A DNA stretch of 64,000 nt from Escherichia phage CJY920: the sequence record PQ349265.1. The stretch is one strand, 5' to 3'. The notes below the pieces were generated by a model. That model was given only the letters and a program-made list of their open reading frames with translations, had not been told where the DNA came from and made no database searches. The translations under genes were made by a program, and so were the position numbers. Shown piece by piece: positions 1,317 to 23,370 of this stretch (position 1 is its first letter; each line of letters starts with the position of its first letter).

Positions 1317-2744
1317 GTGGTAGAAATTATTCTTTCTCATCTCATATTTGATCAAGCTTATTTTTCAAAAGTTTGGCCATATATGGATTCAGAATATTTT
1401 GAAAGTGGTCCAGCTAAAAATACATTCAAATTAATTAAATCTCATGTTAATGAGTACCATAGCGTTCCATCTATTAATGCGTTAAATGTTGCATTAGAAA
1501 ATAGTTCATTTACTGAAACAGAATATTCTGGTGTAAAAACACTTATTTCAAAACTAACCGATTCTCCGGAAGACCACAGCTGGTTAGTAAAAGAAACAGA
1601 AAAATATGTTCAGCAAAGGGCGATGTTTAACGCCACATCTAAAATAATTGAAATTCAAACCAATGCTGAGCTTCCTCCAGAAAAACGAAATAAGAAAATG
1701 CCGGATGTAGGTGCTATTCCTGACATTATGCGCCAAGCATTATCAATTTCATTTGATAGCTACGTTGGCCATGATTGGATGGATGACTATGAAGCACGTT
1801 GGCTATCTTATATGAATAAAGCTCGTAAGGTTCCATTTAAACTCAAAATTCTAAATAAAATTACTAAAGGCGGAGCTGAAACTGGAACACTGAATGTTTT
1901 AATGGCTGGTGTTAACGTCGGTAAGTCATTAGGTCTGTGTTCATTGGCAGCAGATTATTTGCAGCTCGGACATAATGTTCTTTACATTTCCATGGAAATG
2001 GCAGAAGAAGTCTGTGCTAAACGTATTGATGCTAATATGCTTGACGTTTCTCTTGATGACATTGATGATGGGCATATTTCTTACGCTGAGTATAAAGGAA
2101 AAATGGAAAAATGGCGTGAGAAATCTACTCTTGGCCGTTTAATCGTTAAACAGTATCCTACTGGTGGAGCAGACGCTAATACATTTCGATCGCTTTTAAA
2201 CGAATTAAAGCTCAAGAAGAATTTTGTTCCAACAATCATTATTGTCGACTATCTAGGTATTTGTAAATCTTGTCGCATCAGAGTTTACTCAGAAAATAGT
2301 TACACAACTGTTAAAGCTATCGCAGAGGAATTGCGTGCTCTTGCTGTTGAAACCGAAACTGTTCTTTGGACTGCAGCACAGGTTGGTAAGCAAGCTTGGG
2401 ATTCTTCTGATGTTAACATGAGCGATATTGCAGAATCTGCCGGTCTTCCAGCAACAGCCGATTTTATGCTTGCGGTCATTGAAACTGAGGAGTTAGCAGC
2501 TGCTGAACAACAACTTATTAAGCAAATCAAATCACGATATGGTGATAAGAATAAATGGAATAAGTTTTTGATGGGTGTTCAAAAAGGAAATCAGAAATGG
2601 GTAGAAATTGAACAAGATTCTACTCCAACTGAAGTTAACGAAGTAGCAGGTTCGCAACAGATACAAGCTGAGCAGAATCGCTATCAAAGAAATGAATCTA
2701 CTCGAGCCCAGTTAGATGCTTTAGCAAATGAATTAAAATTTTAG
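1317..2744 (+). CDS. 41: gp41 replicative DNA helicase (DnaB family), 475 aa
   Basis: Walker A 'GVNVGKS', DnaB-like motifs, GTG start, length 475 aa as T4 gp41. Confidence 0.93.
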   Translation: MVEIILSHLIFDQAYFSKVWPYMDSEYFESGPAKNTFKLIKSHVNEYHSVPSINALNVALENSSFTETEYSGVKTLISKLTDSPEDHSWLVKETEKYVQQRAMFNATSKIIEIQTNAELPPEKRNKKMPDVGAIPDIMRQALSISFDSYVGHDWMDDYEARWLSYMNKARKVPFKLKILNKITKGGAETGTLNVLMAGVNVGKSLGLCSLAADYLQLGHNVLYISMEMAEEVCAKRIDANMLDVSLDDIDDGHISYAEYKGKMEKWREKSTLGRLIVKQYPTGGADANTFRSLLNELKLKKNFVPTIIIVDYLGICKSCRIRVYSENSYTTVKAIAEELRALAVETETVLWTAAQVGKQAWDSSDVNMSDIAESAGLPATADFMLAVIETEELAAAEQQLIKQIKSRYGDKNKWNKFLMGVQKGNQKWVEIEQDSTPTEVNEVAGSQQIQAEQNRYQRNESTRAQLDALANELKF

Positions 2745-2773
2745 TTTACAAGCTGACAGGACTATGGTATAGT
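2744..2773 (+). promoter_or_regulatory. early promoter (GTTTAC -35, TATAGT-like -10)
   Basis: gtttacaagctgacaggactatggtatagt; T4 early-promoter consensus. Confidence 0.5.
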
Positions 2774-2802
2774 AGTCTTGTTGGTTAAATGAGGAGATTG
2801 TT

Positions 2803-2985
2803 ATGGAATTGGTAAAGGTAGTTTTTATGGGGTGGTTTAAGAATGAAAGCATGTTTACTAAAGAAATCACAATGATGAAAGACGACGTTCAATGGGCTAC
2901 TACTCAATATGCTGAAGTTAATAAAGCATTAGTTAAAGCTTTCATTGATGACAAGAAAGTATGCGAAGTGGATTGCCGAGGATAA
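2803..2985 (+). CDS. dmd: 60-aa protein at the position of T4 gene 61.5 (Dmd-like)
   Basis: Synteny (immediately downstream of 41) and length 60 aa; sequence identity to Dmd not verifiable here. Confidence 0.4.
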   Translation: MELVKVVFMGWFKNESMFTKEITMMKDDVQWATTQYAEVNKALVKAFIDDKKVCEVDCRG

Positions 2986-2986
2986 T

Positions 2987-3229
2987 ATGCATATTGTTTT
3001 ATTTAAACCTACTCCGTATAATGTCAGGAAAAATACTCAATTCAAAGCACTTATTGCAGATACGTGGGAATTGGTGTTAGATATTCCAGCAGAAGAAAGT
3101 CCTCCATTTGGTCGAGTGGAATTTATTAAGTTTGCTGTGCGCCCTACGAAGCGACAGATTCGCCAATGCAAAAGATACTTTCGTAAAATAGTCAAGTTAG
3201 AGAAACAGTTATTGATGCTAGTAAAATAG
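2987..3229 (+). CDS. hypothetical protein (61.4 position)
   Basis: ORF with ATG directly after previous stop; basic C-terminus. Confidence 0.4.
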   Translation: MHIVLFKPTPYNVRKNTQFKALIADTWELVLDIPAEESPPFGRVEFIKFAVRPTKRQIRQCKRYFRKIVKLEKQLLMLVK

Positions 3230-3231
3230 TA

Positions 3232-3262
3232 GTTTACAAGCTGATAGAGTTGTGTTATAGTA
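3232..3262 (+). promoter_or_regulatory. early promoter
   Basis: gtttacaagctgatagagttgtgttatagt. Confidence 0.45.
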
Positions 3263-3292
3263 ATTCTATCAGCTAATCGCGGAGAAAAGAAA

Positions 3293-3547
3293 ATGATGCT
3301 AGTTAATAGAGAATATCAGTTTAAATCAGAAGAAGATTTGGAAAAATTCGCAAGTGGTTGTGAACTGAATAGACGCACAGCTAAAGTCATAGGATTAAAA
3401 CCCTTTACAGTTCTAGATTGTGAAGTTTCTAAATTCCGCAGAGGGTGTTCTATTAGCGGTCATGCTCTGGTTGATGGGAACACATTTTTCTTTGTTTTTA
3501 GCGTCAGAGAACTTTTATTGATTAACGAACTTGAGGAAATAAAATAG
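3293..3547 (+). CDS. hypothetical protein
   Basis: 84-aa ORF between promoter and next promoter. Confidence 0.4.
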   Translation: MMLVNREYQFKSEEDLEKFASGCELNRRTAKVIGLKPFTVLDCEVSKFRRGCSISGHALVDGNTFFFVFSVRELLLINELEEIK

Positions 3548-3578
3548 TTTACTTTTGTTAGAAATTGAGATACTATAT
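3547..3578 (+). promoter_or_regulatory. early promoter
   Basis: gtttacttttgttagaaattgagatactatataa. Confidence 0.45.
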
Positions 3579-3604
3579 AAACATAAACTACTGAGGAGAT
3601 TATC

Positions 3605-3898
3605 ATGAAAAAATTTGTTTTTGCTGCAATTTTTGCTTTAGCTTCTTGCGCTGCTCAGCCTGCTATGGCAGGTTATGATAAAGATTTGTGCGAATGGTCT
3701 ATGACTGCAGATCAGACTGAGGTTGAAACTCAGATTGAAGCAGATATTATGAATATCGTTGAGCGTGATCGCCCTGAAATGAAAGCTGAAGTACAAAAAC
3801 AGCTTAAGTCTGGTGGTGTAATGCAGTATAATTATGTTCTGTATTGCGATAAAAACTTCAATAATAAAAATATCATCGCTGAAGTGGTAGGTGAATAA
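3605..3898 (+). CDS. sp: Spackle-like periplasmic protein, 97 aa, with signal peptide
   Basis: N-terminal signal peptide MKKFVFAAIFALASCAAQPAMA; length and position as T4 sp (61.3). Confidence 0.55.
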   Translation: MKKFVFAAIFALASCAAQPAMAGYDKDLCEWSMTADQTEVETQIEADIMNIVERDRPEMKAEVQKQLKSGGVMQYNYVLYCDKNFNNKNIIAEVVGE

Positions 3899-4692: not shown

Positions 4693-5721
4693 ATGTCATC
4701 AATACCTTGGATTGATAATGAGTTTGCATATCGTGCGCTAGCTCATTTACCTAAATTCGCACAAGTAAATAATAGTTCAACTTTTAAATTACGGTTTAGA
4801 TGTCCTGTTTGTGGAGATTCAAAAACCGACCAAAATAAAGCCCGTGGATGGTATTATGGTGATAATAATGAAGGAAATATTCATTGTTATAACTGTAACT
4901 ATCATGCACCAATCGGAATATATTTAAAGGAGTTTGAACCTGATTTATATCGTGAGTATATCTTTGAAATAAGAAAAGAAAAAGGTAAAAGTCGTCCAGT
5001 AGAAAAACCTAAAGAACTTCCTAAACAACCCGAGAAGAAAATAATTAAATCTCTTCCGTCATGCATTAGATTAGATAAACTGACGGAAGACCATCCAATT
5101 ATAAAATACGTAAAAGCTCGTTGTATTCCAAAGGATAAATGGAAATATCTTTGGTTTACAACCGAATGGCCTAAATTAGTTAATAGTATAGCACCAGGAA
5201 CATATAAAAAGGAAATACCTGAGCCTCGTCTTGTTATTCCAATTTATAATGCTAATGGAAAAGCTGAGTCTTTTCAAGGACGTGCATTAAAGAAAGATGC
5301 TCCTCAAAAATATATCACCATCAAAGCTTATCCTGAGGCAACAAAAATCTATGGAGTCGAACGGGTTAAAGATGGCGATGTATATGTTCTAGAAGGACCT
5401 ATAGATTCACTTTTTATTGAAAATGGTATAGCTATTACAGGTGGTCAATTAGACCTAGAAATTGTTCCATTTAAAGATAGACGCGTGTGGGTTTTAGATA
5501 ATGAACCTCGTCACCCTGACACTATTAAACGAATGACTAAATTAGTTGATGCAGGAGAAAGGGTTATGTTTTGGGACAAATCTCCCTGGAAATCAAAAGA
5601 TGTCAATGATATGATTAGAAAGGAAGGTGCAACCCCTGAACAAATTATGGAATATATGAAAAATAATATTGCCCAAGGGCTGATGGCTAAAATGCGGCTA
5701 TCTAAATATGCTAAGATTTAA
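4693..5721 (+). CDS. 61: gp61 DNA primase, 342 aa
   Basis: N-terminal Zn-ribbon CPVCGDS...CYNC, Toprim-like core; length as T4 gp61. Confidence 0.93.
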   Translation: MSSIPWIDNEFAYRALAHLPKFAQVNNSSTFKLRFRCPVCGDSKTDQNKARGWYYGDNNEGNIHCYNCNYHAPIGIYLKEFEPDLYREYIFEIRKEKGKSRPVEKPKELPKQPEKKIIKSLPSCIRLDKLTEDHPIIKYVKARCIPKDKWKYLWFTTEWPKLVNSIAPGTYKKEIPEPRLVIPIYNANGKAESFQGRALKKDAPQKYITIKAYPEATKIYGVERVKDGDVYVLEGPIDSLFIENGIAITGGQLDLEIVPFKDRRVWVLDNEPRHPDTIKRMTKLVDAGERVMFWDKSPWKSKDVNDMIRKEGATPEQIMEYMKNNIAQGLMAKMRLSKYAKI

Positions 5722-6022: not shown

Positions 6023-7362
<1,340 letters not shown>

Positions 7363-7423
7363 TTGCTTTATATTTAAATGATACAATTAATCTACTAATC
7401 CATGAATTGAAAGGAAAAATAAC

Positions 7424-7939
7424 ATGCCACATTTCAACGAATGTAGTCATCTGATCGAAGGCGCTGATAAAGCTCAAAATGAATACTGGGATATTCTCGG
7501 TGATGAAAAAGACCCGCTGCAGGTTATGCTTGATATGCAGAAATCTTTACAGGTTCGTTTAGCAAATGACCGCGAATACTGCTATCATCCAGATAAATTA
7601 GAAACTGCCGGTGATGTTGTTTCTTGGATGCGTGAACAAAAAGACTGCATTGACGATGAATTCCGCGAACTTCTGACTTCTCTTGGTGAAATGTCACGTG
7701 GTGAAAAAGATGCATCGGCAGTTTGGAAAAAATGGAAAGCACGTTATATTGAAGCGCAAGAAAAACGCATTGATGAAATGTCCCCAGAAGATCAGCTCGA
7801 AATTAAATTTGAGCTTGTGGATATATTTCATTTCGTATTAAATATGTTTGCTGGCCTTGGAATGAATGCGGAAGAAATCTTTAAACTTTATTATCTGAAA
7901 AACAAACATAATTTTGAACGTCAAGATAATGGATATTAA
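7424..7939 (+). CDS. 56: gp56 dCTPase/dUTPase (dCTP pyrophosphatase), 171 aa
   Basis: MazG-like NTP pyrophosphatase fold; matches T4 gp56 length/sequence from memory. Confidence 0.9.
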   Translation: MPHFNECSHLIEGADKAQNEYWDILGDEKDPLQVMLDMQKSLQVRLANDREYCYHPDKLETAGDVVSWMREQKDCIDDEFRELLTSLGEMSRGEKDASAVWKKWKARYIEAQEKRIDEMSPEDQLEIKFELVDIFHFVLNMFAGLGMNAEEIFKLYYLKNKHNFERQDNGY

Positions 7940-8765
7940 TTTCAAATCTGCTCTTAAAGAAAAGTTCCCGCAATGGGAACTTTTAGATGAGTACTTAAAA
8001 ATTATAGATAAGTATAAGTTAAACACTCACATTAAATCTAAAACAGAAGCCCATCATATACTTCCTAAATGCGCATTTCCTGAGTATAGTGATTTTAAAA
8101 TATATCCTTGGAATAGAGTATATCTCCCAATATATCAACACATATATGTTCACTATCTCTTATGTTCAACTGGAAGATTTGGATTGCTGAATGCATTCCA
8201 GAGAATGACCTCAGTAAATAGCTCGCAATTTAAGAAGCTTTCTGACTTAGAGAAAGACTTTACTATTAAGTTATGGGCTGATAAACGTGAGCAATGGATA
8301 AACCAAGATACTCTTCGCAAAAGAAAATCTTTCATGTATTCCAACTTTGATTTTTGGTATAATGACTGGATTTCAAGGGATATGCCTCGTTACCGAAGAT
8401 ATTGGGGAATTTTAGTTGAAGAAAATAATCCAGAAATTTTAGGTACTCACAAAAATTGCCTAATAGCTGTAGTAAAAGATTTTTGCATAAGGTATTCAAA
8501 GGAAAATAATTTATCTATAGAAGAAGTTTTAAATATTCAAAAATTAAAACAATCATCCGAAAAAGCTTTAAAAGCTAAAGGAAAAACTTTAAGCAAAACT
8601 GCACGCAGAAATCAACTTAAATGGAATTATGAAAAAGAGCTTAGAGAATTATGGATTAATAACAACAAACCTAAATATGTCAATTTTAGAAAGTTAGCAG
8701 TTAGTCTAGGTTATCCCGATGAAAACTATATAAATATGATAAAGAGGTTTGAAAATGGTTTATAA
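7929..8765 (+). CDS. freestanding HNH-type homing endonuclease (Mob-like)
   Basis: Motif EAHHILPK ... N ... HIYVHY; overlaps gene 56 stop; occupies the 56-soc intergenic hotspot. Confidence 0.65.
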   Translation: MDINFKSALKEKFPQWELLDEYLKIIDKYKLNTHIKSKTEAHHILPKCAFPEYSDFKIYPWNRVYLPIYQHIYVHYLLCSTGRFGLLNAFQRMTSVNSSQFKKLSDLEKDFTIKLWADKREQWINQDTLRKRKSFMYSNFDFWYNDWISRDMPRYRRYWGILVEENNPEILGTHKNCLIAVVKDFCIRYSKENNLSIEEVLNIQKLKQSSEKALKAKGKTLSKTARRNQLKWNYEKELRELWINNNKPKYVNFRKLAVSLGYPDENYINMIKRFENGL

Positions 8766-8768
8766 ATA
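8761..8768 (+). promoter_or_regulatory. late promoter TATAAATA (soc)
   Basis: Exact TATAAATA ~30 nt upstream of soc ATG. Confidence 0.5.
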
Positions 8769-8799
8769 CACTTGTAATTAAACAATAAAGGAGTTTATT

Positions 8800-9036
8800 A
8801 TGGGTGGTTTCGTTAACATCAAGACCTTTACTCATCCAGCGGGTGAAGGCAAAGAAGTTAAAGGTATGGAAGTTTCTGTTCCATTTGAAATCTATTCTAA
8901 CGAGCATCGTATTGCAGATTCTCATTATCAGACCTTTCCTTCTGAAAAGGCGGCATATTCTACTGTAGTTTCTGATGCAGCTGACTGGAAAACTAAGAAT
9001 GCTGCAATGTTTACGCCTACACAAATAGGTGGTTAA
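8800..9036 (+). CDS. soc: Soc small outer capsid protein
   Basis: Translation (VNIKTF...HYQTFPSEKAAYSTV) matches T4 Soc from memory. Confidence 0.85.
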   Translation: MGGFVNIKTFTHPAGEGKEVKGMEVSVPFEIYSNEHRIADSHYQTFPSEKAAYSTVVSDAADWKTKNAAMFTPTQIGG

Positions 9037-9043
9037 TAATTCA

Positions 9044-9068
9044 AGGACTCCCGAAGGAGTCCTTTTTT
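9044..9068 (+). terminator. rho-independent terminator
   Basis: aggactcccgaaggagtcct hairpin followed by TTTTTT. Confidence 0.7.
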
Positions 9069-9078
9069 CATTTTACTG

Positions 9079-9109
9079 GTTTACTTTCCAAAATGAGTAT
9101 GGTATAATA
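9079..9109 (+). promoter_or_regulatory. early promoter
   Basis: gtttactttccaaaatgagtatggtataat. Confidence 0.5.
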
Positions 9110-9134
9110 GAATTATCTTATAGAGGAGAGCGCT

Positions 9135-9341
9135 ATGTTAAATCGTTGGATTAAACCAAATGAAGATTTAGATATTATCATTTCACGACATGTAATGAAG
9201 AAATATGAACTACAGCCATGGTCTACAGAAGTTGTTGTGCATTCATTTATGATGTACGCAGATGGTTCTGTCGAATTTAACGCAGAGATTCGATATGATT
9301 ATGGTGAGAAGCAAGTTGAATTCAAGAGAGGCTTTTTGTAA
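9135..9341 (+). CDS. hypothetical protein
   Basis: 68-aa ORF downstream of early promoter. Confidence 0.4.
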   Translation: MLNRWIKPNEDLDIIISRHVMKKYELQPWSTEVVVHSFMMYADGSVEFNAEIRYDYGEKQVEFKRGFL

Positions 9342-19710: not shown

Positions 19711-21264
19711 GTGATGATTAAGAATGAAATTAAAATTCTGAGCGATATTGAACATATCAAAAAGCGTAGCGGCATGTATATTGGCTCTTCTGCTAATGAA
19801 ATGCATGAGCGCTTTCTGTTTGGTAAATGGGAAAGTGTTCAGTATGTACCTGGTCTTGTTAAGCTTATTGATGAAATTATCGATAACTCAGTAGATGAAG
19901 GTATTCGTACTAAGTTTAAATTCGCAAATAAAATTAGTGTTACTATTAAAAACAATCAAGTAACAGTTGAAGATAACGGTCGCGGTATTCCACAGGCGAT
20001 GGTTAAAACACCTACTGGTGAAGAAATTCCTGGTCCTGTTGCTGCATGGACTATTCCAAAAGCAGGTGGTAACTTTGGTGATGATAAAGAACGCGTCACT
20101 GGCGGTATGAATGGTGTTGGTTCTAGTTTGACAAACATTTTTTCTGTGATGTTTGTCGGTGAAACTGGTGATGGTCAAAATAATATTGTAGTTCGTTGTT
20201 CAAATGGCATGGAAAATAAATCATGGGAAACTATTCCAGGAAAATGGAAAGGAACTCGTGTTACTTTCATTCCTGATTTTATGTCATTTGAAACTAATGA
20301 GCTGTCCCAAGTTTATCTTGACATTACACTAGATCGTCTCCAGACACTTGCAGTAGTTTATCCTGATATTCAATTTACCTTTAATGGTAAAAAGGTTCAG
20401 GGCAATTTTAAGAAATATGCACGCCAATATGATGAGCATGCTATCGTTCAAGAACAAGAAAATTGCTCTATTGCGGTTGGTCGTTCACCGGATGGTTTTC
20501 GTCAATTAACTTATGTGAATAACATTCACACTAAGAATGGTGGCCATCACATTGACTGTGTTATGGATGATATTTGTGAAGACCTTATTCCACAAATCAA
20601 ACGTAAGTTCAAAATTGATGTGACTAAAGCACGCGTTAAAGAATGTTTGACTATCGTTATGTTTGTCCGTGATATGAAAAACATGCGATTTGATTCTCAA
20701 ACTAAAGAGCGTTTGACTTCTCCATTTGGTGAAATCCGTAGTCATATTCAACTTGATGCTAAAAAGATTTCACGTGCTATTCTAAATAATGAAGCAATTC
20801 TAATGCCGATTATTGAAGCTGCTTTGGCTCGTAAATTGGCGGCAGAAAAAGCAGCAGAAACTAAAGCAGCTAAAAAGGCTTCTAAAGCTAAGGTTCATAA
20901 ACATATTAAAGCGAATCTTTGTGGTAAAGATGCTGATACTACTCTTTTCTTGACTGAGGGTGATTCGGCTATCGGATATCTTATTGATGTTCGTGATAAA
21001 GAACTTCACGGTGGTTATCCATTACGTGGTAAAGTTCTCAACAGTTGGGGTATGTCATATGCTGACATACTTAAAAACAAAGAACTGTTTGATATTTGCG
21101 CAATCACTGGATTAGTTCTCGGTGAAAAGGCGTTTGAAGAAAAAGAAGATGGCGAGTGGTTTACTTTCGAACTAAATGGCGATACAATTATCGTAAATGA
21201 AAATGATGAAGTACAGATTAATGGTAAATGGATAACAGTAGGTGAATTACGAAAAAATCTATAA
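19711..21264 (+). CDS. 39: gp39 DNA topoisomerase II large subunit (GyrB-like ATPase)
   Basis: GHKL ATPase motifs (EIIDNSVDE, GLHG-like), Toprim; ends without the C-terminal part encoded by gene 60. Confidence 0.93.
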   Translation: MMIKNEIKILSDIEHIKKRSGMYIGSSANEMHERFLFGKWESVQYVPGLVKLIDEIIDNSVDEGIRTKFKFANKISVTIKNNQVTVEDNGRGIPQAMVKTPTGEEIPGPVAAWTIPKAGGNFGDDKERVTGGMNGVGSSLTNIFSVMFVGETGDGQNNIVVRCSNGMENKSWETIPGKWKGTRVTFIPDFMSFETNELSQVYLDITLDRLQTLAVVYPDIQFTFNGKKVQGNFKKYARQYDEHAIVQEQENCSIAVGRSPDGFRQLTYVNNIHTKNGGHHIDCVMDDICEDLIPQIKRKFKIDVTKARVKECLTIVMFVRDMKNMRFDSQTKERLTSPFGEIRSHIQLDAKKISRAILNNEAILMPIIEAALARKLAAEKAAETKAAKKASKAKVHKHIKANLCGKDADTTLFLTEGDSAIGYLIDVRDKELHGGYPLRGKVLNSWGMSYADILKNKELFDICAITGLVLGEKAFEEKEDGEWFTFELNGDTIIVNENDEVQINGKWITVGELRKNL

Positions 21265-22060
21265 TGACTTAATAGTGCGGGGTAAAACCCGCGTTTCTAA
21301 ATTTAAGGGTGAAATTCATCATATCCTTCCAAGATCAATGGGAGGTTCTGATGATAAAGAAAATTTGGTGAAACTGACTTTTCGTGAACATTTTTTAGCA
21401 CATTTTCTACTATATAAAATTCATCGTAATCGTGAAATGGCATATGCGATGAATAGAATGTTAAACACTGAAAAATATTTACGTTCTAGTAAATTATATG
21501 AAATTGCTAGAATTTACCATCAAAGAGCAGTATCTGAATGGTCAAAAAACTTTATGAAAGATAAAGTTTTAATGAGAAGTATTAAATCGGGTAAATGCGC
21601 CTTATTAATTAAAGGATCATTTAACCCAAAGGAATGGTGCGGTGTTAATAAAGGTGTTAAGCTTCCTGGAATTAAAGGCATGACATGCTTTAAAAATGAA
21701 AAAGGCGAAGTTTTTCGTCTTCATGTTAATGATCCACGCATTAAAGCTGAAAAATTAGTTGGTATTGGAAATACTGTTGCTGCTACTGCAAAAGCAGCTG
21801 AACTTGAAAAAGCGAAACCATGGTATAATAAATCAGCGACAAATCCAGAGGCTGTAAAATTAATACCAAATTTATATGAATGGTACGTCACGAAATATGA
21901 CCCCGATCATTATAAACGAACGGGAGTTGCTAAATGGAAATCAGTTAATAATATAACTGTGAATTCAAAATTATTCGGCCGAGCATTTAATGAATTTAAA
22001 CGCGGTTGGATTCCTGATGAAAAGTTCTATGAGGTGTATAATGAAATTTGTAAAAATTGA
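21242..22060 (+). CDS. mobA: HNH homing endonuclease (MobA-like) inserted between genes 39 and 60
   Basis: HNH motif EIHHILPRSMGGSDDKENLVKLTFREHFLAH; overlaps 39 stop and 60 start. Confidence 0.7.
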   Translation: MNYEKIYNDLIVRGKTRVSKFKGEIHHILPRSMGGSDDKENLVKLTFREHFLAHFLLYKIHRNREMAYAMNRMLNTEKYLRSSKLYEIARIYHQRAVSEWSKNFMKDKVLMRSIKSGKCALLIKGSFNPKEWCGVNKGVKLPGIKGMTCFKNEKGEVFRLHVNDPRIKAEKLVGIGNTVAATAKAAELEKAKPWYNKSATNPEAVKLIPNLYEWYVTKYDPDHYKRTGVAKWKSVNNITVNSKLFGRAFNEFKRGWIPDEKFYEVYNEICKN

Positions 22061-22573
22061 TTCTTCTAGCGTTGATATGAAAAAATATAAATTGCAGAAC
22101 AATGTTCGTCGTTCTATTAAATCCTCTTCAATGAACTATGCGAATGTCGCTATTATGACAGACGCAGATCACGATGGATAGCCTTCGGGCTATCTATAGA
22201 AATACCTCATAATTAAGAGATTATTGGATTAGGTTCTATTTATCCTTCTCTGCTTGGATTTTTTAGTAATTGGCCAGAACTGTTTGAGCAAGGACGAATT
22301 CGCTTTGTCAAAACTCCTGTAATCATCGCTCAGGTTGGTAAAAAACAAGAATGGTTTTATACAGTCGCTGAATATGAGAGTGCTAAAGATGCTCTACCTA
22401 AACATAGTATTCGATACATCAAGGGATTGGGCTCACTTCAGCGGGATGAATATAAAGAAATGATTCAAAACCCTGTGTACGACGTAGTTAAACTTCCTGA
22501 AAATTGGAAAGAACTATTTGAAATGCTCATGGGTAACGACCCTGAACTCCGTAAAGATTGGATGCTAGGATAA
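22041..22573 (+). CDS. 60: gp60 topoisomerase II subunit, translated across a 50-nt bypass (codons 1-46 = 22041..22178, resumes 22229..22573; 160 aa)
   Basis: ANVAIMTDADHDG then UAG; downstream frame LGSIYPSLLGFFSNWPELF... continues the protein; identical layout to T4 gene 60. Confidence 0.9.
22179..22228 (+). other. gene 60 translational bypass (hop) coding gap, 50 nt
   Basis: Take-off GGA 22176-22178, UAG stop, hairpin ggatagccttcgggctatc, landing GGA 22226-22228. Confidence 0.9.
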
Positions 22574-23370
22574 TGAATTATCGTAAAATTTATGATAAAC
22601 TTATCGCTGCGGCTAAAAACCGCAGCACTATTCCTAATTATACTGAAACTCACCATATTTTGCCTAAATCTATGGGCGGGAGTAATGCTAAATCAAATCT
22701 AGTTAAAATGACCCCTAGAGAGCATTTTATCGCCCATTTATTGCTTTATAAAATTCATAAGAACCGTTCTATGCTTATGGCTATTAGAGCTTTTTACATG
22801 GGAGCTAGAAATTCTAGAGATTATGATTGGCTTAAACAAGAATTCTCTAAAGAGCACTCTAGATTTATGAAAGAATGGATTGCTAAAAATGGCAACCCAT
22901 TTAAAGGTAAAAAACATACTAAAGCAACAAGAGAATTAATGTCACATATTGCTTCACAACGTATAGGCGAATTAAATCCATTTTATGGTAAAACTCATAC
23001 GCAAGAAGCAATAGATAAAATAATACAGGCTAACAAGTTATCTTGGGAGAATGGGCGAAAAGCACCTGTAAAAACAAAAGAACACCAGGATAAAATAACT
23101 AAATCAAGAATGGAAACATTTAAAACAAAAGGATTTAAACCATACACTCCTAGGTCAGAAGAAACTAAAGCTAAGACTAGAGAGTTGTATAAATCTAAAT
23201 ATGAAAGAAGGCCTATAAGAATCACAAGTGTAAAAACAGGCGAAACTATTGATTTTAACTATCTTTATGAATTAAGGGAGTATTTAGATATAGGGTCTTC
23301 TAATATATTGAAAGCATTAAATAATCCTAACAGAACCTGCAAAGGTTATAAAATGTGTTGGATGTCCTAA
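22573..23370 (+). CDS. second HNH homing endonuclease with NUMOD3-like repeats, 265 aa
   Basis: ETHHILPKSMGGSNAKSNLVKMTPREHFIAH; repeats NPFKGKKHTKATRELMS / NPFYGKTHTQEAIDKI; ATG overlaps gene 60 stop. Confidence 0.7.
   Translation: MNYRKIYDKLIAAAKNRSTIPNYTETHHILPKSMGGSNAKSNLVKMTPREHFIAHLLLYKIHKNRSMLMAIRAFYMGARNSRDYDWLKQEFSKEHSRFMKEWIAKNGNPFKGKKHTKATRELMSHIASQRIGELNPFYGKTHTQEAIDKIIQANKLSWENGRKAPVKTKEHQDKITKSRMETFKTKGFKPYTPRSEETKAKTRELYKSKYERRPIRITSVKTGETIDFNYLYELREYLDIGSSNILKALNNPNRTCKGYKMCWMS

Follow-up and report, generated by a model that had tools for sequence, protein, structure and literature searches.

Organization of the gene 56-soc locus

What kind of gene stands between gene 56 and soc in Escherichia phage CJY920, and does it form part of a mobile element comparable to the one that T4 carries at the same place? 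The question was addressed in a window of 64,000 nucleotides (sequence record PQ349265.1), which is the whole stretch of DNA analyzed and to which all coordinates refer. The window belongs to a T4-like phage (Tequatrovirus). No record in the phage collection is identical to it; the closest ones reach about 95-96% identity over 25 kb. The following features surround the locus:

4693-5721, primase gene 61 (gene order around the locus)
6023-6583, ORF of 186 aa between primase gene 61 and dam
6583-7362, dam, the 5' neighbor of gene 56
7424-7939, + strand, gene 56 (dCTPase), left host gene, from the ORF list; T4/PD112-type allele to about 7903
7929-8765, + strand, ORF of 278 aa for a predicted free-standing Mob-type HNH endonuclease, from PHROG 655 and annotated identical copies
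8761-8768, + strand, soc late promoter TATAAATA and right cassette boundary, from the box scan and the point where identity to HNH-free genomes resumes
8800-9036, + strand, soc (small outer capsid protein), right host gene, from the ORF list and comparison
9043-9064, terminator 3' of soc (terminator scan)
9080-9108, early-type promoter 3' of soc

The original prediction had placed an ORF at 7929-8765, overlapping the gene 56 stop and preceding soc, and both the coordinates and the 11-nt overlap were confirmed. The ORF is intact, starts with ATG at 7929, and ends with TAA at 8763-8765 (278 aa plus the stop, 279 codons); the gene 56 stop TAA occupies 7937-7939. The stop codon of the ORF sits within the late promoter box TATAAATA of soc, whose start lies 34 nt past it. 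A chance reading frame is excluded because an identical protein is encoded at the same site in several phages and because the copies differ almost only synonymously. The T4 layout given there for comparison agrees with the annotation of NC_000866, in which segF, a GIY-YIG homing endonuclease gene, lies between gene 56 and soc and likewise overlaps gene 56 by 11 nt.

Family assignment and predicted fold of the endonuclease

The HNH assignment was built on the motif, topology, and transitive homology, because curated models and fold searches recover no HNH. Pfam (including PF01844, PF13395, and PF14279) and NCBIfam scans of the protein gave no match. Searches of PDB sequences, by phmmer and with two profiles, returned no relatives but only low-complexity noise, and no HNH was recovered when the fold was compared with solved structures. 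The protein matched PHROG 655 'homing endonuclease' (5e-33) and PHROG 12434 'HNH endonuclease' (5e-10); the MobA-like ORFs of the same window also belong to PHROG 655, at 1e-56 to 1e-57. In tblastn searches of phage genomes, the identical protein was found in Yersinia phages fPS-2 and PYPS2T and in Escherichia phage Pu-Krd-SF5, where it is annotated as 'HNH endonuclease' or 'homing endonuclease'. Copies at least 80% identical occur in about 30 phage records; where identity drops to about 30%, the relatives are Mob-like ORFs found at different loci. Among named proteins, MobC of phage PST comes closest, with 42% identity across residues 17-121 (E 7e-18). An exhaustive HMMER search of representative proteins collected 713 homologues at E <= 0.001, a word-indexed search of 5.8 billion proteins gave three matches only, and IMG/VR contained a single close copy of the ORF.

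The alignment of 132 sequences located the following motif:

8052-8153, + strand, HNH catalytic motif H42 H43 … N62 … H71 … H75 (HH-x18-N-x8-H-x3-H)

The invariant columns are exactly H42, H43, P46, N62, H71, and H75, and the spacing N-x8-H-x3-H (N-9-H-4-H) is held in 130 of the 132 sequences. The DNase motif of colicin E9 (N118, H127, H131) has the same N/H/H spacing. In the AF2 model, the motif falls on a strand at residues 39-43 (…EAHHI), a strand at 63-67 (RVYLP), and a helix at 68-81 (IYQHIYVHYLL…). This predicted strand-strand-helix arrangement matches the beta-beta-alpha-metal fold at the level of topology. In the predicted architecture, an N-terminal HNH nuclease domain (pLDDT 96.7) is connected by a helical linker to a C-terminal module, within which residues 231-278 are modeled with pLDDT above 91.

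The transitive link was provided by the canonical MobA-like ORF of the window (21242-22060), to which the family profile aligned with an hhalign probability of 98.6% (E 1.4e-15) and with all motif residues in register (HHILPRSMGG…N…EH…AH). That ORF scored 20.1 bits against PF01844, just under the cut-off of 21.4. Among 82 family members scanned with Pfam, four matched PF01844 (best E 7e-5), 16 contained NUMOD3, and five contained the I-HmuI NUMOD-like domain. It is extremely improbable that the HH…N…H…H pattern is coincidental and the domain all-helical and of some other kind: the profile alignment keeps the motif in register with ORFs lying just below the Pfam HNH threshold, family members match PF01844 with E values down to 7e-5, and the predicted topology fits the motif. 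In global fold searches, a beta-beta-alpha core of 35 residues within a mostly helical domain of 135 residues would be expected to be swamped.

That the nuclease has lost its activity and is kept for binding DNA or for regulation around oriA and gene 56 is also very unlikely, if somewhat less so. In favor of this, no curated HNH model or solved HNH structure matches the protein, and the loop between HH and N lacks the GG of canonical Mob enzymes and exceeds theirs in length. Yet all four catalytic or metal-binding positions are invariant in the 132 homologues with their spacing kept, which would not be expected of a dead enzyme, and the 'FPEY…WN' loop is a conserved feature of the subfamily, common to MobC, rather than a sign of local degeneration. 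Taken on motif, modeled topology, and transitive homology, membership of the protein in the T4 Mob group of free-standing HNH endonucleases is well supported. The HNH type named in the original prediction stands, with a motif that aligns in register with canonical Mob/HNH endonucleases. The gene at 56/soc is an uncharacterized further member of a well-described class and is already annotated in GenBank/RefSeq; literature searches found no paper describing, naming, or characterizing an HNH endonuclease at 56/soc.

Cassette boundaries and the gene 56 tail

The ends of the inserted segment were determined by comparing HNH-bearing genomes with their nearest HNH-free relatives. In three such pairs (Kp122/L039, KM16/L030, and fPS-2/L015-T2), the members are 99-100% identical in gene 56 through 7903 and diverge at 7904. 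On the right, identity to HNH-free relatives returns exactly at TATAAATA in four lineage pairs. Because both junctions recur, the mobile cassette, as delimited by these alignments, is about 857 bp long (7904-8760) and consists of the HNH ORF preceded by a recoded 36-nt end of gene 56:

7904-7939, + strand, recoded last 12 codons of gene 56 (KHNFERQDNGY plus stop), left cassette end, from the lineage-pair junctions

No co-conversion upstream of 7904 or to the right of TATAAATA was seen in the lineage pairs. Within the tail, codons N169-G170 of gene 56 (AAT GGA) make the ATG of the endonuclease. The tail KHNFERQDNGY plus stop is present in all 14 HNH-bearing loci, and 31 of 36 endonuclease-free loci have AENFARQ(D/E)(R/A/S)GY plus stop; about 12 of the 36 nucleotide positions differ between the cassette and naive versions. 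Recoded-type tails also occur without an endonuclease, in PD112 (KHNFERQDRGY) and in L010 and L017 (QHNFERQDNGY), so any link between the recoded tail and immunity is tentative. Junctions at short conserved blocks could also come from ordinary recombination between co-infecting phages. A supposed partial duplicate of gene 56 in KM16 was dropped, the extra 'NTP pyrophosphohydrolase' ORF being a different small protein.

Horizontal spread, mosaicism, and selection

Comparison of the locus across T-even genomes, which the original prediction had proposed as a check, revealed a slot holding this HNH gene, segF, small ORFs, other inserts, or nothing. Occupancy is patchy: among about 770 T-even records matching the region, segF was found in 63 and this HNH gene in about 30, the remainder having small ORFs, other inserts, or an empty slot. 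Two small ORFs fill the slot in T2 and PD112, and in several genomes gene 56 and soc are spaced by only 22-36 nt. The same ORF was found at 56/soc in Tequatrovirus, Jiaodavirus, Moonvirus (KM16), Gaprivervirus (DK-13), and vB_EcoM_005. Between the window and Klebsiella phage JIPh_Kp122 (Jiaodavirus), the nucleotide identity of 96.9% in the ORF falls to 66.6% in mid-gene 56 and to 67.5% in soc. The G+C content is 29.9% in the cassette, 37.6% in gene 56, and 40.1% in soc. Movement of the ORF across phage lineages and genera by horizontal transfer is demonstrated by these nucleotide comparisons.

The present genome is itself a mosaic at this place. Its gp56 is 99.4% identical to that of PD112 and 94.7% to that of T4, and nucleotides 7561-7865 are 100% identical to PD112 and about 70% identical to the remaining HNH-bearing Tequatroviruses of the collection, all of which have the T2/fPS-2-type gene 56 allele. 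As the alignments have it, a gene 56 of the T4/PD112 type is joined here to a cassette, soc, and downstream region of the fPS-2/Kha5h type, and because of this join no record exceeds 93.6% identity over 7300-9300. The same alignments put the allele crossover somewhere in the conserved block 7866-7940, and no finer placement follows because T4-type genomes share that block. The cassette at this locus accounts for the mosaic gene 56-soc region in therapeutic and environmental T4-like phages.

The dN/dS ratio of the ORF was 0-0.12, and the comparison with fPS-2 gave eight synonymous and no non-synonymous changes. This pattern of substitutions places the protein under strong purifying selection, with its function retained.

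The same data bear on whether the gene is an accessory nuclease that is moved by ordinary homologous recombination between co-infecting T-even phages only and serves some end other than its own homing, for example degrading or excluding competitor DNA or promoting local rearrangements for escape from host defence. Strong purifying selection is unusual for a purely selfish gene, which is expected to decay once fixed, and the two junctions fall at short stretches conserved throughout the T-evens (7866-7903 and TATAAATA), to which any crossover between heterologous inserts is confined. A role of this sort has a precedent in SegB, a T-even homing endonuclease that is reported to aid immune evasion by amplifying anti-defence loci (PMC13096335). 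We nevertheless regard the accessory reading as unlikely. Cassettes 97% identical in nucleotide sequence are found in genera whose flanks are only about 67% identical, which argues for active drive over rare passive crossovers in 8-38 nt of homology, and the closest characterized relatives, MobE and MobA, promote their own inheritance (PMC2790892, PMC2988022).

Expression signals and proposed mechanism of homing

The evidence favors, with a probability of about 0.7, a T4 Mob-type free-standing homing endonuclease gene carried on the mobile cassette of about 857 bp. Its expression signals were searched for upstream of and within the ORF. No late promoter box TATAAATA was found upstream of the HNH ORF. 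A hairpin was located shortly after its start:

7960-7984, + strand, terminator-like hairpin AAAAGTTCCC-GCAAT-GGGAACTTTT, putative attenuator, 32-56 nt into the ORF

As RNA, the structure (AAAAGUUCCC-GCAAU-GGGAACUUUU) has a folding energy of -17.9 kcal/mol (z = -4.2). It was not called by a simple terminator scan because its T-run has only four residues and is part of the stem; the fPS-2 record annotates it as a terminator. In T4 segF, a GC-rich hairpin (GGACGCC-GAAA-GGCGUCU) followed by U's lies at a similar distance into the gene. Both segF and mobE are promoterless and have internal 5' terminators (PMC2988022, PMC2790892), and the 11-bp overlap of segF implies re-initiation at low frequency (PMC2988022).

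On this pattern, the HNH gene would have no promoter of its own and would be read on transcripts from promoters upstream of gene 56. Low-level translation might be achieved by coupling or re-initiation at its ATG within the 3' end of gene 56, and the hairpin would further damp expression. In a mixed infection, the enzyme would bind and nick or cut the cassette-free rival at the naive 3' end of gene 56 or close beside it, and recombination-dependent repair would copy in the donor cassette, leading to 'intronless homing' and local exclusion of the rival allele. The recoded gene 56 tail within the cassette may protect the carrier from cleaving itself.

The choice of target is the weakest step. 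The AENFARQDRGY-type tail sequence is proposed because no host sequence other than the 36-nt tail moves together with the cassette and because about one third of the tail is changed, with no co-conversion beyond the junctions. The mapped ends of the cassette turn this into a concrete prediction, namely that the naive gene 56 tail is the target. A cleavage site deep in gene 56 was considered and is unlikely, HNH-bearing genomes being 99-100% identical to HNH-free relatives through 7903. SegF cleaves about 200 bp upstream, deep in gene 56. The proposed target would lie within about 75 bp of the endonuclease gene, whereas characterized free-standing endonucleases usually cut hundreds of bp away from theirs (PMC2988022).

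Read in this way, the locus is a cleanly delimited further example of T-even 'intronless homing'. It leaves current concepts unchanged and represents an ordinary case of a known type of phage mobile element. What makes it useful is that the cassette ends are resolved to a few nucleotides in several lineages and that SegF has the same start and tail. It offers a natural system for studying how nicking HNH enzymes drive gene conversion, a question listed as open in a 2010 review (PMC2988022), and whether SegF and the HNH enzyme exclude each other.

Comparison with Mob enzymes and Bacillus phage nickases

Like the Mob enzymes (MobA-E, especially MobC and MobE), the predicted protein is encoded by a free-standing gene between conserved genes and combines an N-terminal HNH domain with a distinct C-terminal region. 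The resemblance to mobE extends to the apparent absence of a promoter, to a start codon inside the preceding gene, and to a 5' coding region with a hairpin or terminator (PMC2790892). It differs from the Mob enzymes in its own mix of domains, a MobC-like nuclease with a MobE/g030-like C-terminus, and in its location at 56/soc instead of nrdG/nrdD or nrdA/nrdB, so its target is presumably different. Unlike them, the enzyme has no name, and its nicking activity is assumed by analogy: MobE nicks one specific strand of T2 nrdB in an HNH-dependent way and is inherited at high frequency (PMC2790892), and Mob enzymes nick rather than cut (PMC2988022).

The Bacillus phage HNH nickases I-HmuI and I-HmuII also have a modular design, and NUMOD-type DNA-binding modules like theirs accompany the HNH domain in relatives of the ORF. 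They home by initiation from a nick, as would be the case here. They are intron-encoded and represent a different HNH subclass, and no match between them and the ORF was detected in sequence or fold.

C-terminal module and relation to SegF

The C-terminal part of the protein was defined from identities to other C-termini, pLDDT, and hhalign:

8604-8762, + strand, C-terminal module of about 50 aa, putatively DNA-binding (…ELRELWINNNKPKYVNFRKLAVSLGYP…)

Its C-terminus is 47-51% identical to those of fPS-2 g030, the MobE-annotated ORF of IME08, and the 46.x endonuclease of ECML-134, which is located between genes 46 and 47. MobE-annotated C-termini are about 50% identical over residues 226-274 of the HNH ORF. 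A SegF-family profile (SegF residues 168-200) aligned with residues 225-256 over 31 columns (hhalign 85%, E 6e-6), and this C-terminal motif is probably common to the two proteins. The match is in keeping with the review of Edgell, Gibb and Belfort, which describes SegF as a 'hybrid' endonuclease (PMC2988022). Outside the 31 columns, no similarity between the HNH ORF and SegF was detected and the catalytic halves are unrelated; the ORF is therefore not a Seg enzyme, and the family is a different one from that of T4 SegF, as the original prediction had supposed. GIY-YIG (Seg) membership was ruled out, since the N-terminal GIY-YIG domain is not matched.

The two genes are alike in much else. T4 SegF (gene 69) occupies the same slot, starts from the same ATG within ATGGATATTAA with the 11-nt overlap, and has a 5' hairpin; both proteins begin with MDI, and the T4 gp56 tail is also KHNFERQDNGY, as in HNH-bearing loci. 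They differ in the catalytic domain (GIY-YIG versus HNH) and in the reported chemistry, SegF making double-strand breaks and the Mob enzymes nicks. Gene 56 is the target of SegF (PMC2988022), and SegF drives the exclusion of T2 gene 56 (Belle et al. 2002, as cited in PMC2330249).

An HNH gene at the segF slot is less unusual than it may seem because hotspots with two endonuclease families, mobE/hef and mobC/segH, have already been described in T-even phages (PMC2988022). Different classes of endonuclease often target the same gene, as with mobE/hef and with seg and mob genes at nrdD-nrdG (PMC2988022). The closest parallel is the replacement of mobC and mobE by SegH and Hef (Sandegren et al. 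2005, as cited in PMC2988022), in which different families likewise use the same slot or gene. Those cases concern nrd loci, whereas at 56/soc both cassettes also have in common their first 11 nt and a recoded end of the host gene. Two unrelated nuclease families at one oriA/gene 56 slot are found here with the same start codon and the same recoded host-gene end.

A bolder reading, which we regard as doubtful, is that 56/soc is a site of cassette exchange where SegF and the HNH enzyme act as interchangeable catalytic heads on a related C-terminal module, with a common start and tail, the naive gene 56 3' end as their target, and cross-immunity. If true, the catalytic domain would have been swapped naturally on a single homing target, whose site could be predicted to within about 40 bp from the sequence alone.

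Mob-type HNH Genes in the Window and Upstream of Gene 56

Besides the 56/soc endonuclease, the Mob-type HNH ORF located between gene 56 (dCTPase) and soc, two further ORFs of this type were found in the window directly 3' of the N-terminal part of topoisomerase gene 39 (19711-21264):

21242-22060, + strand, free-standing Mob-type HNH endonuclease ORF, PHROG 655
22558-23370, + strand, free-standing Mob-type HNH endonuclease ORF, PHROG 655

Both contain the canonical motif HHILP..MGG…N…EH…AH and matched PHROG 655, the homing endonuclease family that also holds the 56/soc endonuclease, at 1e-56 to 1e-57; NUMOD3 was detected in one of them. This brings the number of Mob-like genes in the window to at least three.

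A different Mob-like gene, designated g030, was identified on the other side of gene 56 in the related phage fPS-2 (L002) and in the compared genomes L025 and L043:

fPS-2 1560-2210, second Mob-like HNH endonuclease (g030), 216 aa, immediately upstream of gene 56

The C-terminal ~50 aa of g030 share 47% identity with the C-terminus of the 56/soc endonuclease. Thus, with g030 upstream and carrying a related C-terminal module, two HNH genes flank gene 56 in the fPS-2-type arrangement. The phages with this arrangement (L002, L025, and L043) lack dam.

Variants of the Gene 56-soc Locus

In two IMG/VR T4-like contigs (L010 and L017), gp56 ends in the cassette-type tail QHNFERQDNGY, including the AAT GG that creates the endonuclease start codon. 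No endonuclease is present between gene 56 and soc in these contigs, the end of gene 56 being separated from soc by only 32-36 nt. Such tails are possibly footprints of precise endonuclease loss or, as another possibility, represent a resistant allele.

The terminator-like hairpin inside the endonuclease ORF (window 7960-7984) has a counterpart at 1463-1487 in vB_EcoM_ACG-C40, where the 10-bp stem is retained and the 5-nt loop is exactly inverted (GCAAT to ATTGC), changing PQW to PLL in the protein. This pattern is characteristic of template switching at inverted repeats.

A scrambled gene 56/HNH locus was observed in vB_EcoM_005 (L008/L043) at 2007-3842, with the following elements in order:

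First, gene 56 fragment, 45 aa
Second, T4-type copy of gene 56 that lacks ~32 aa internally
Third, in-frame fusion of HNH ORF codons 1-19 with the other allele of gene 56 (residues ~46-171)
Fourth, HNH copy whose 5' end is damaged

The fusion point lies directly after the hairpin-encoded KFPQWELL. Repeated invasion may have left this locus as a scar; alternatively, it may reflect an assembly error.

Neighboring Features

A second late-promoter-type box precedes the conserved late promoter of soc by 32 nt:

8729-8736, + strand, second exact TATAAATA box, within the 3' end of the 56/soc endonuclease ORF

Conservation of this box does not extend to fPS-2 or Kp122, where the seventh position is C.

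Another ORF adjoins dam:

6023-6583, + strand, 186-aa ORF, stop overlapping the dam start codon, PHROG 8706 (unknown function)

This ORF was also found in T2 and L015, and is reduced to ~21-28 C-terminal residues in T4 and PD112. It contains a PD-(D/E)XK-like motif (FDIVI…IEIK) and gave a sub-threshold match to the Pfam DpnII restriction endonuclease (E 0.0025, 17.6 bits, cut-off 23). Since GATC is the target of DpnII as well as of Dam, the ORF may encode a nuclease partner of the adjoining phage Dam methylase, or a remnant of one.
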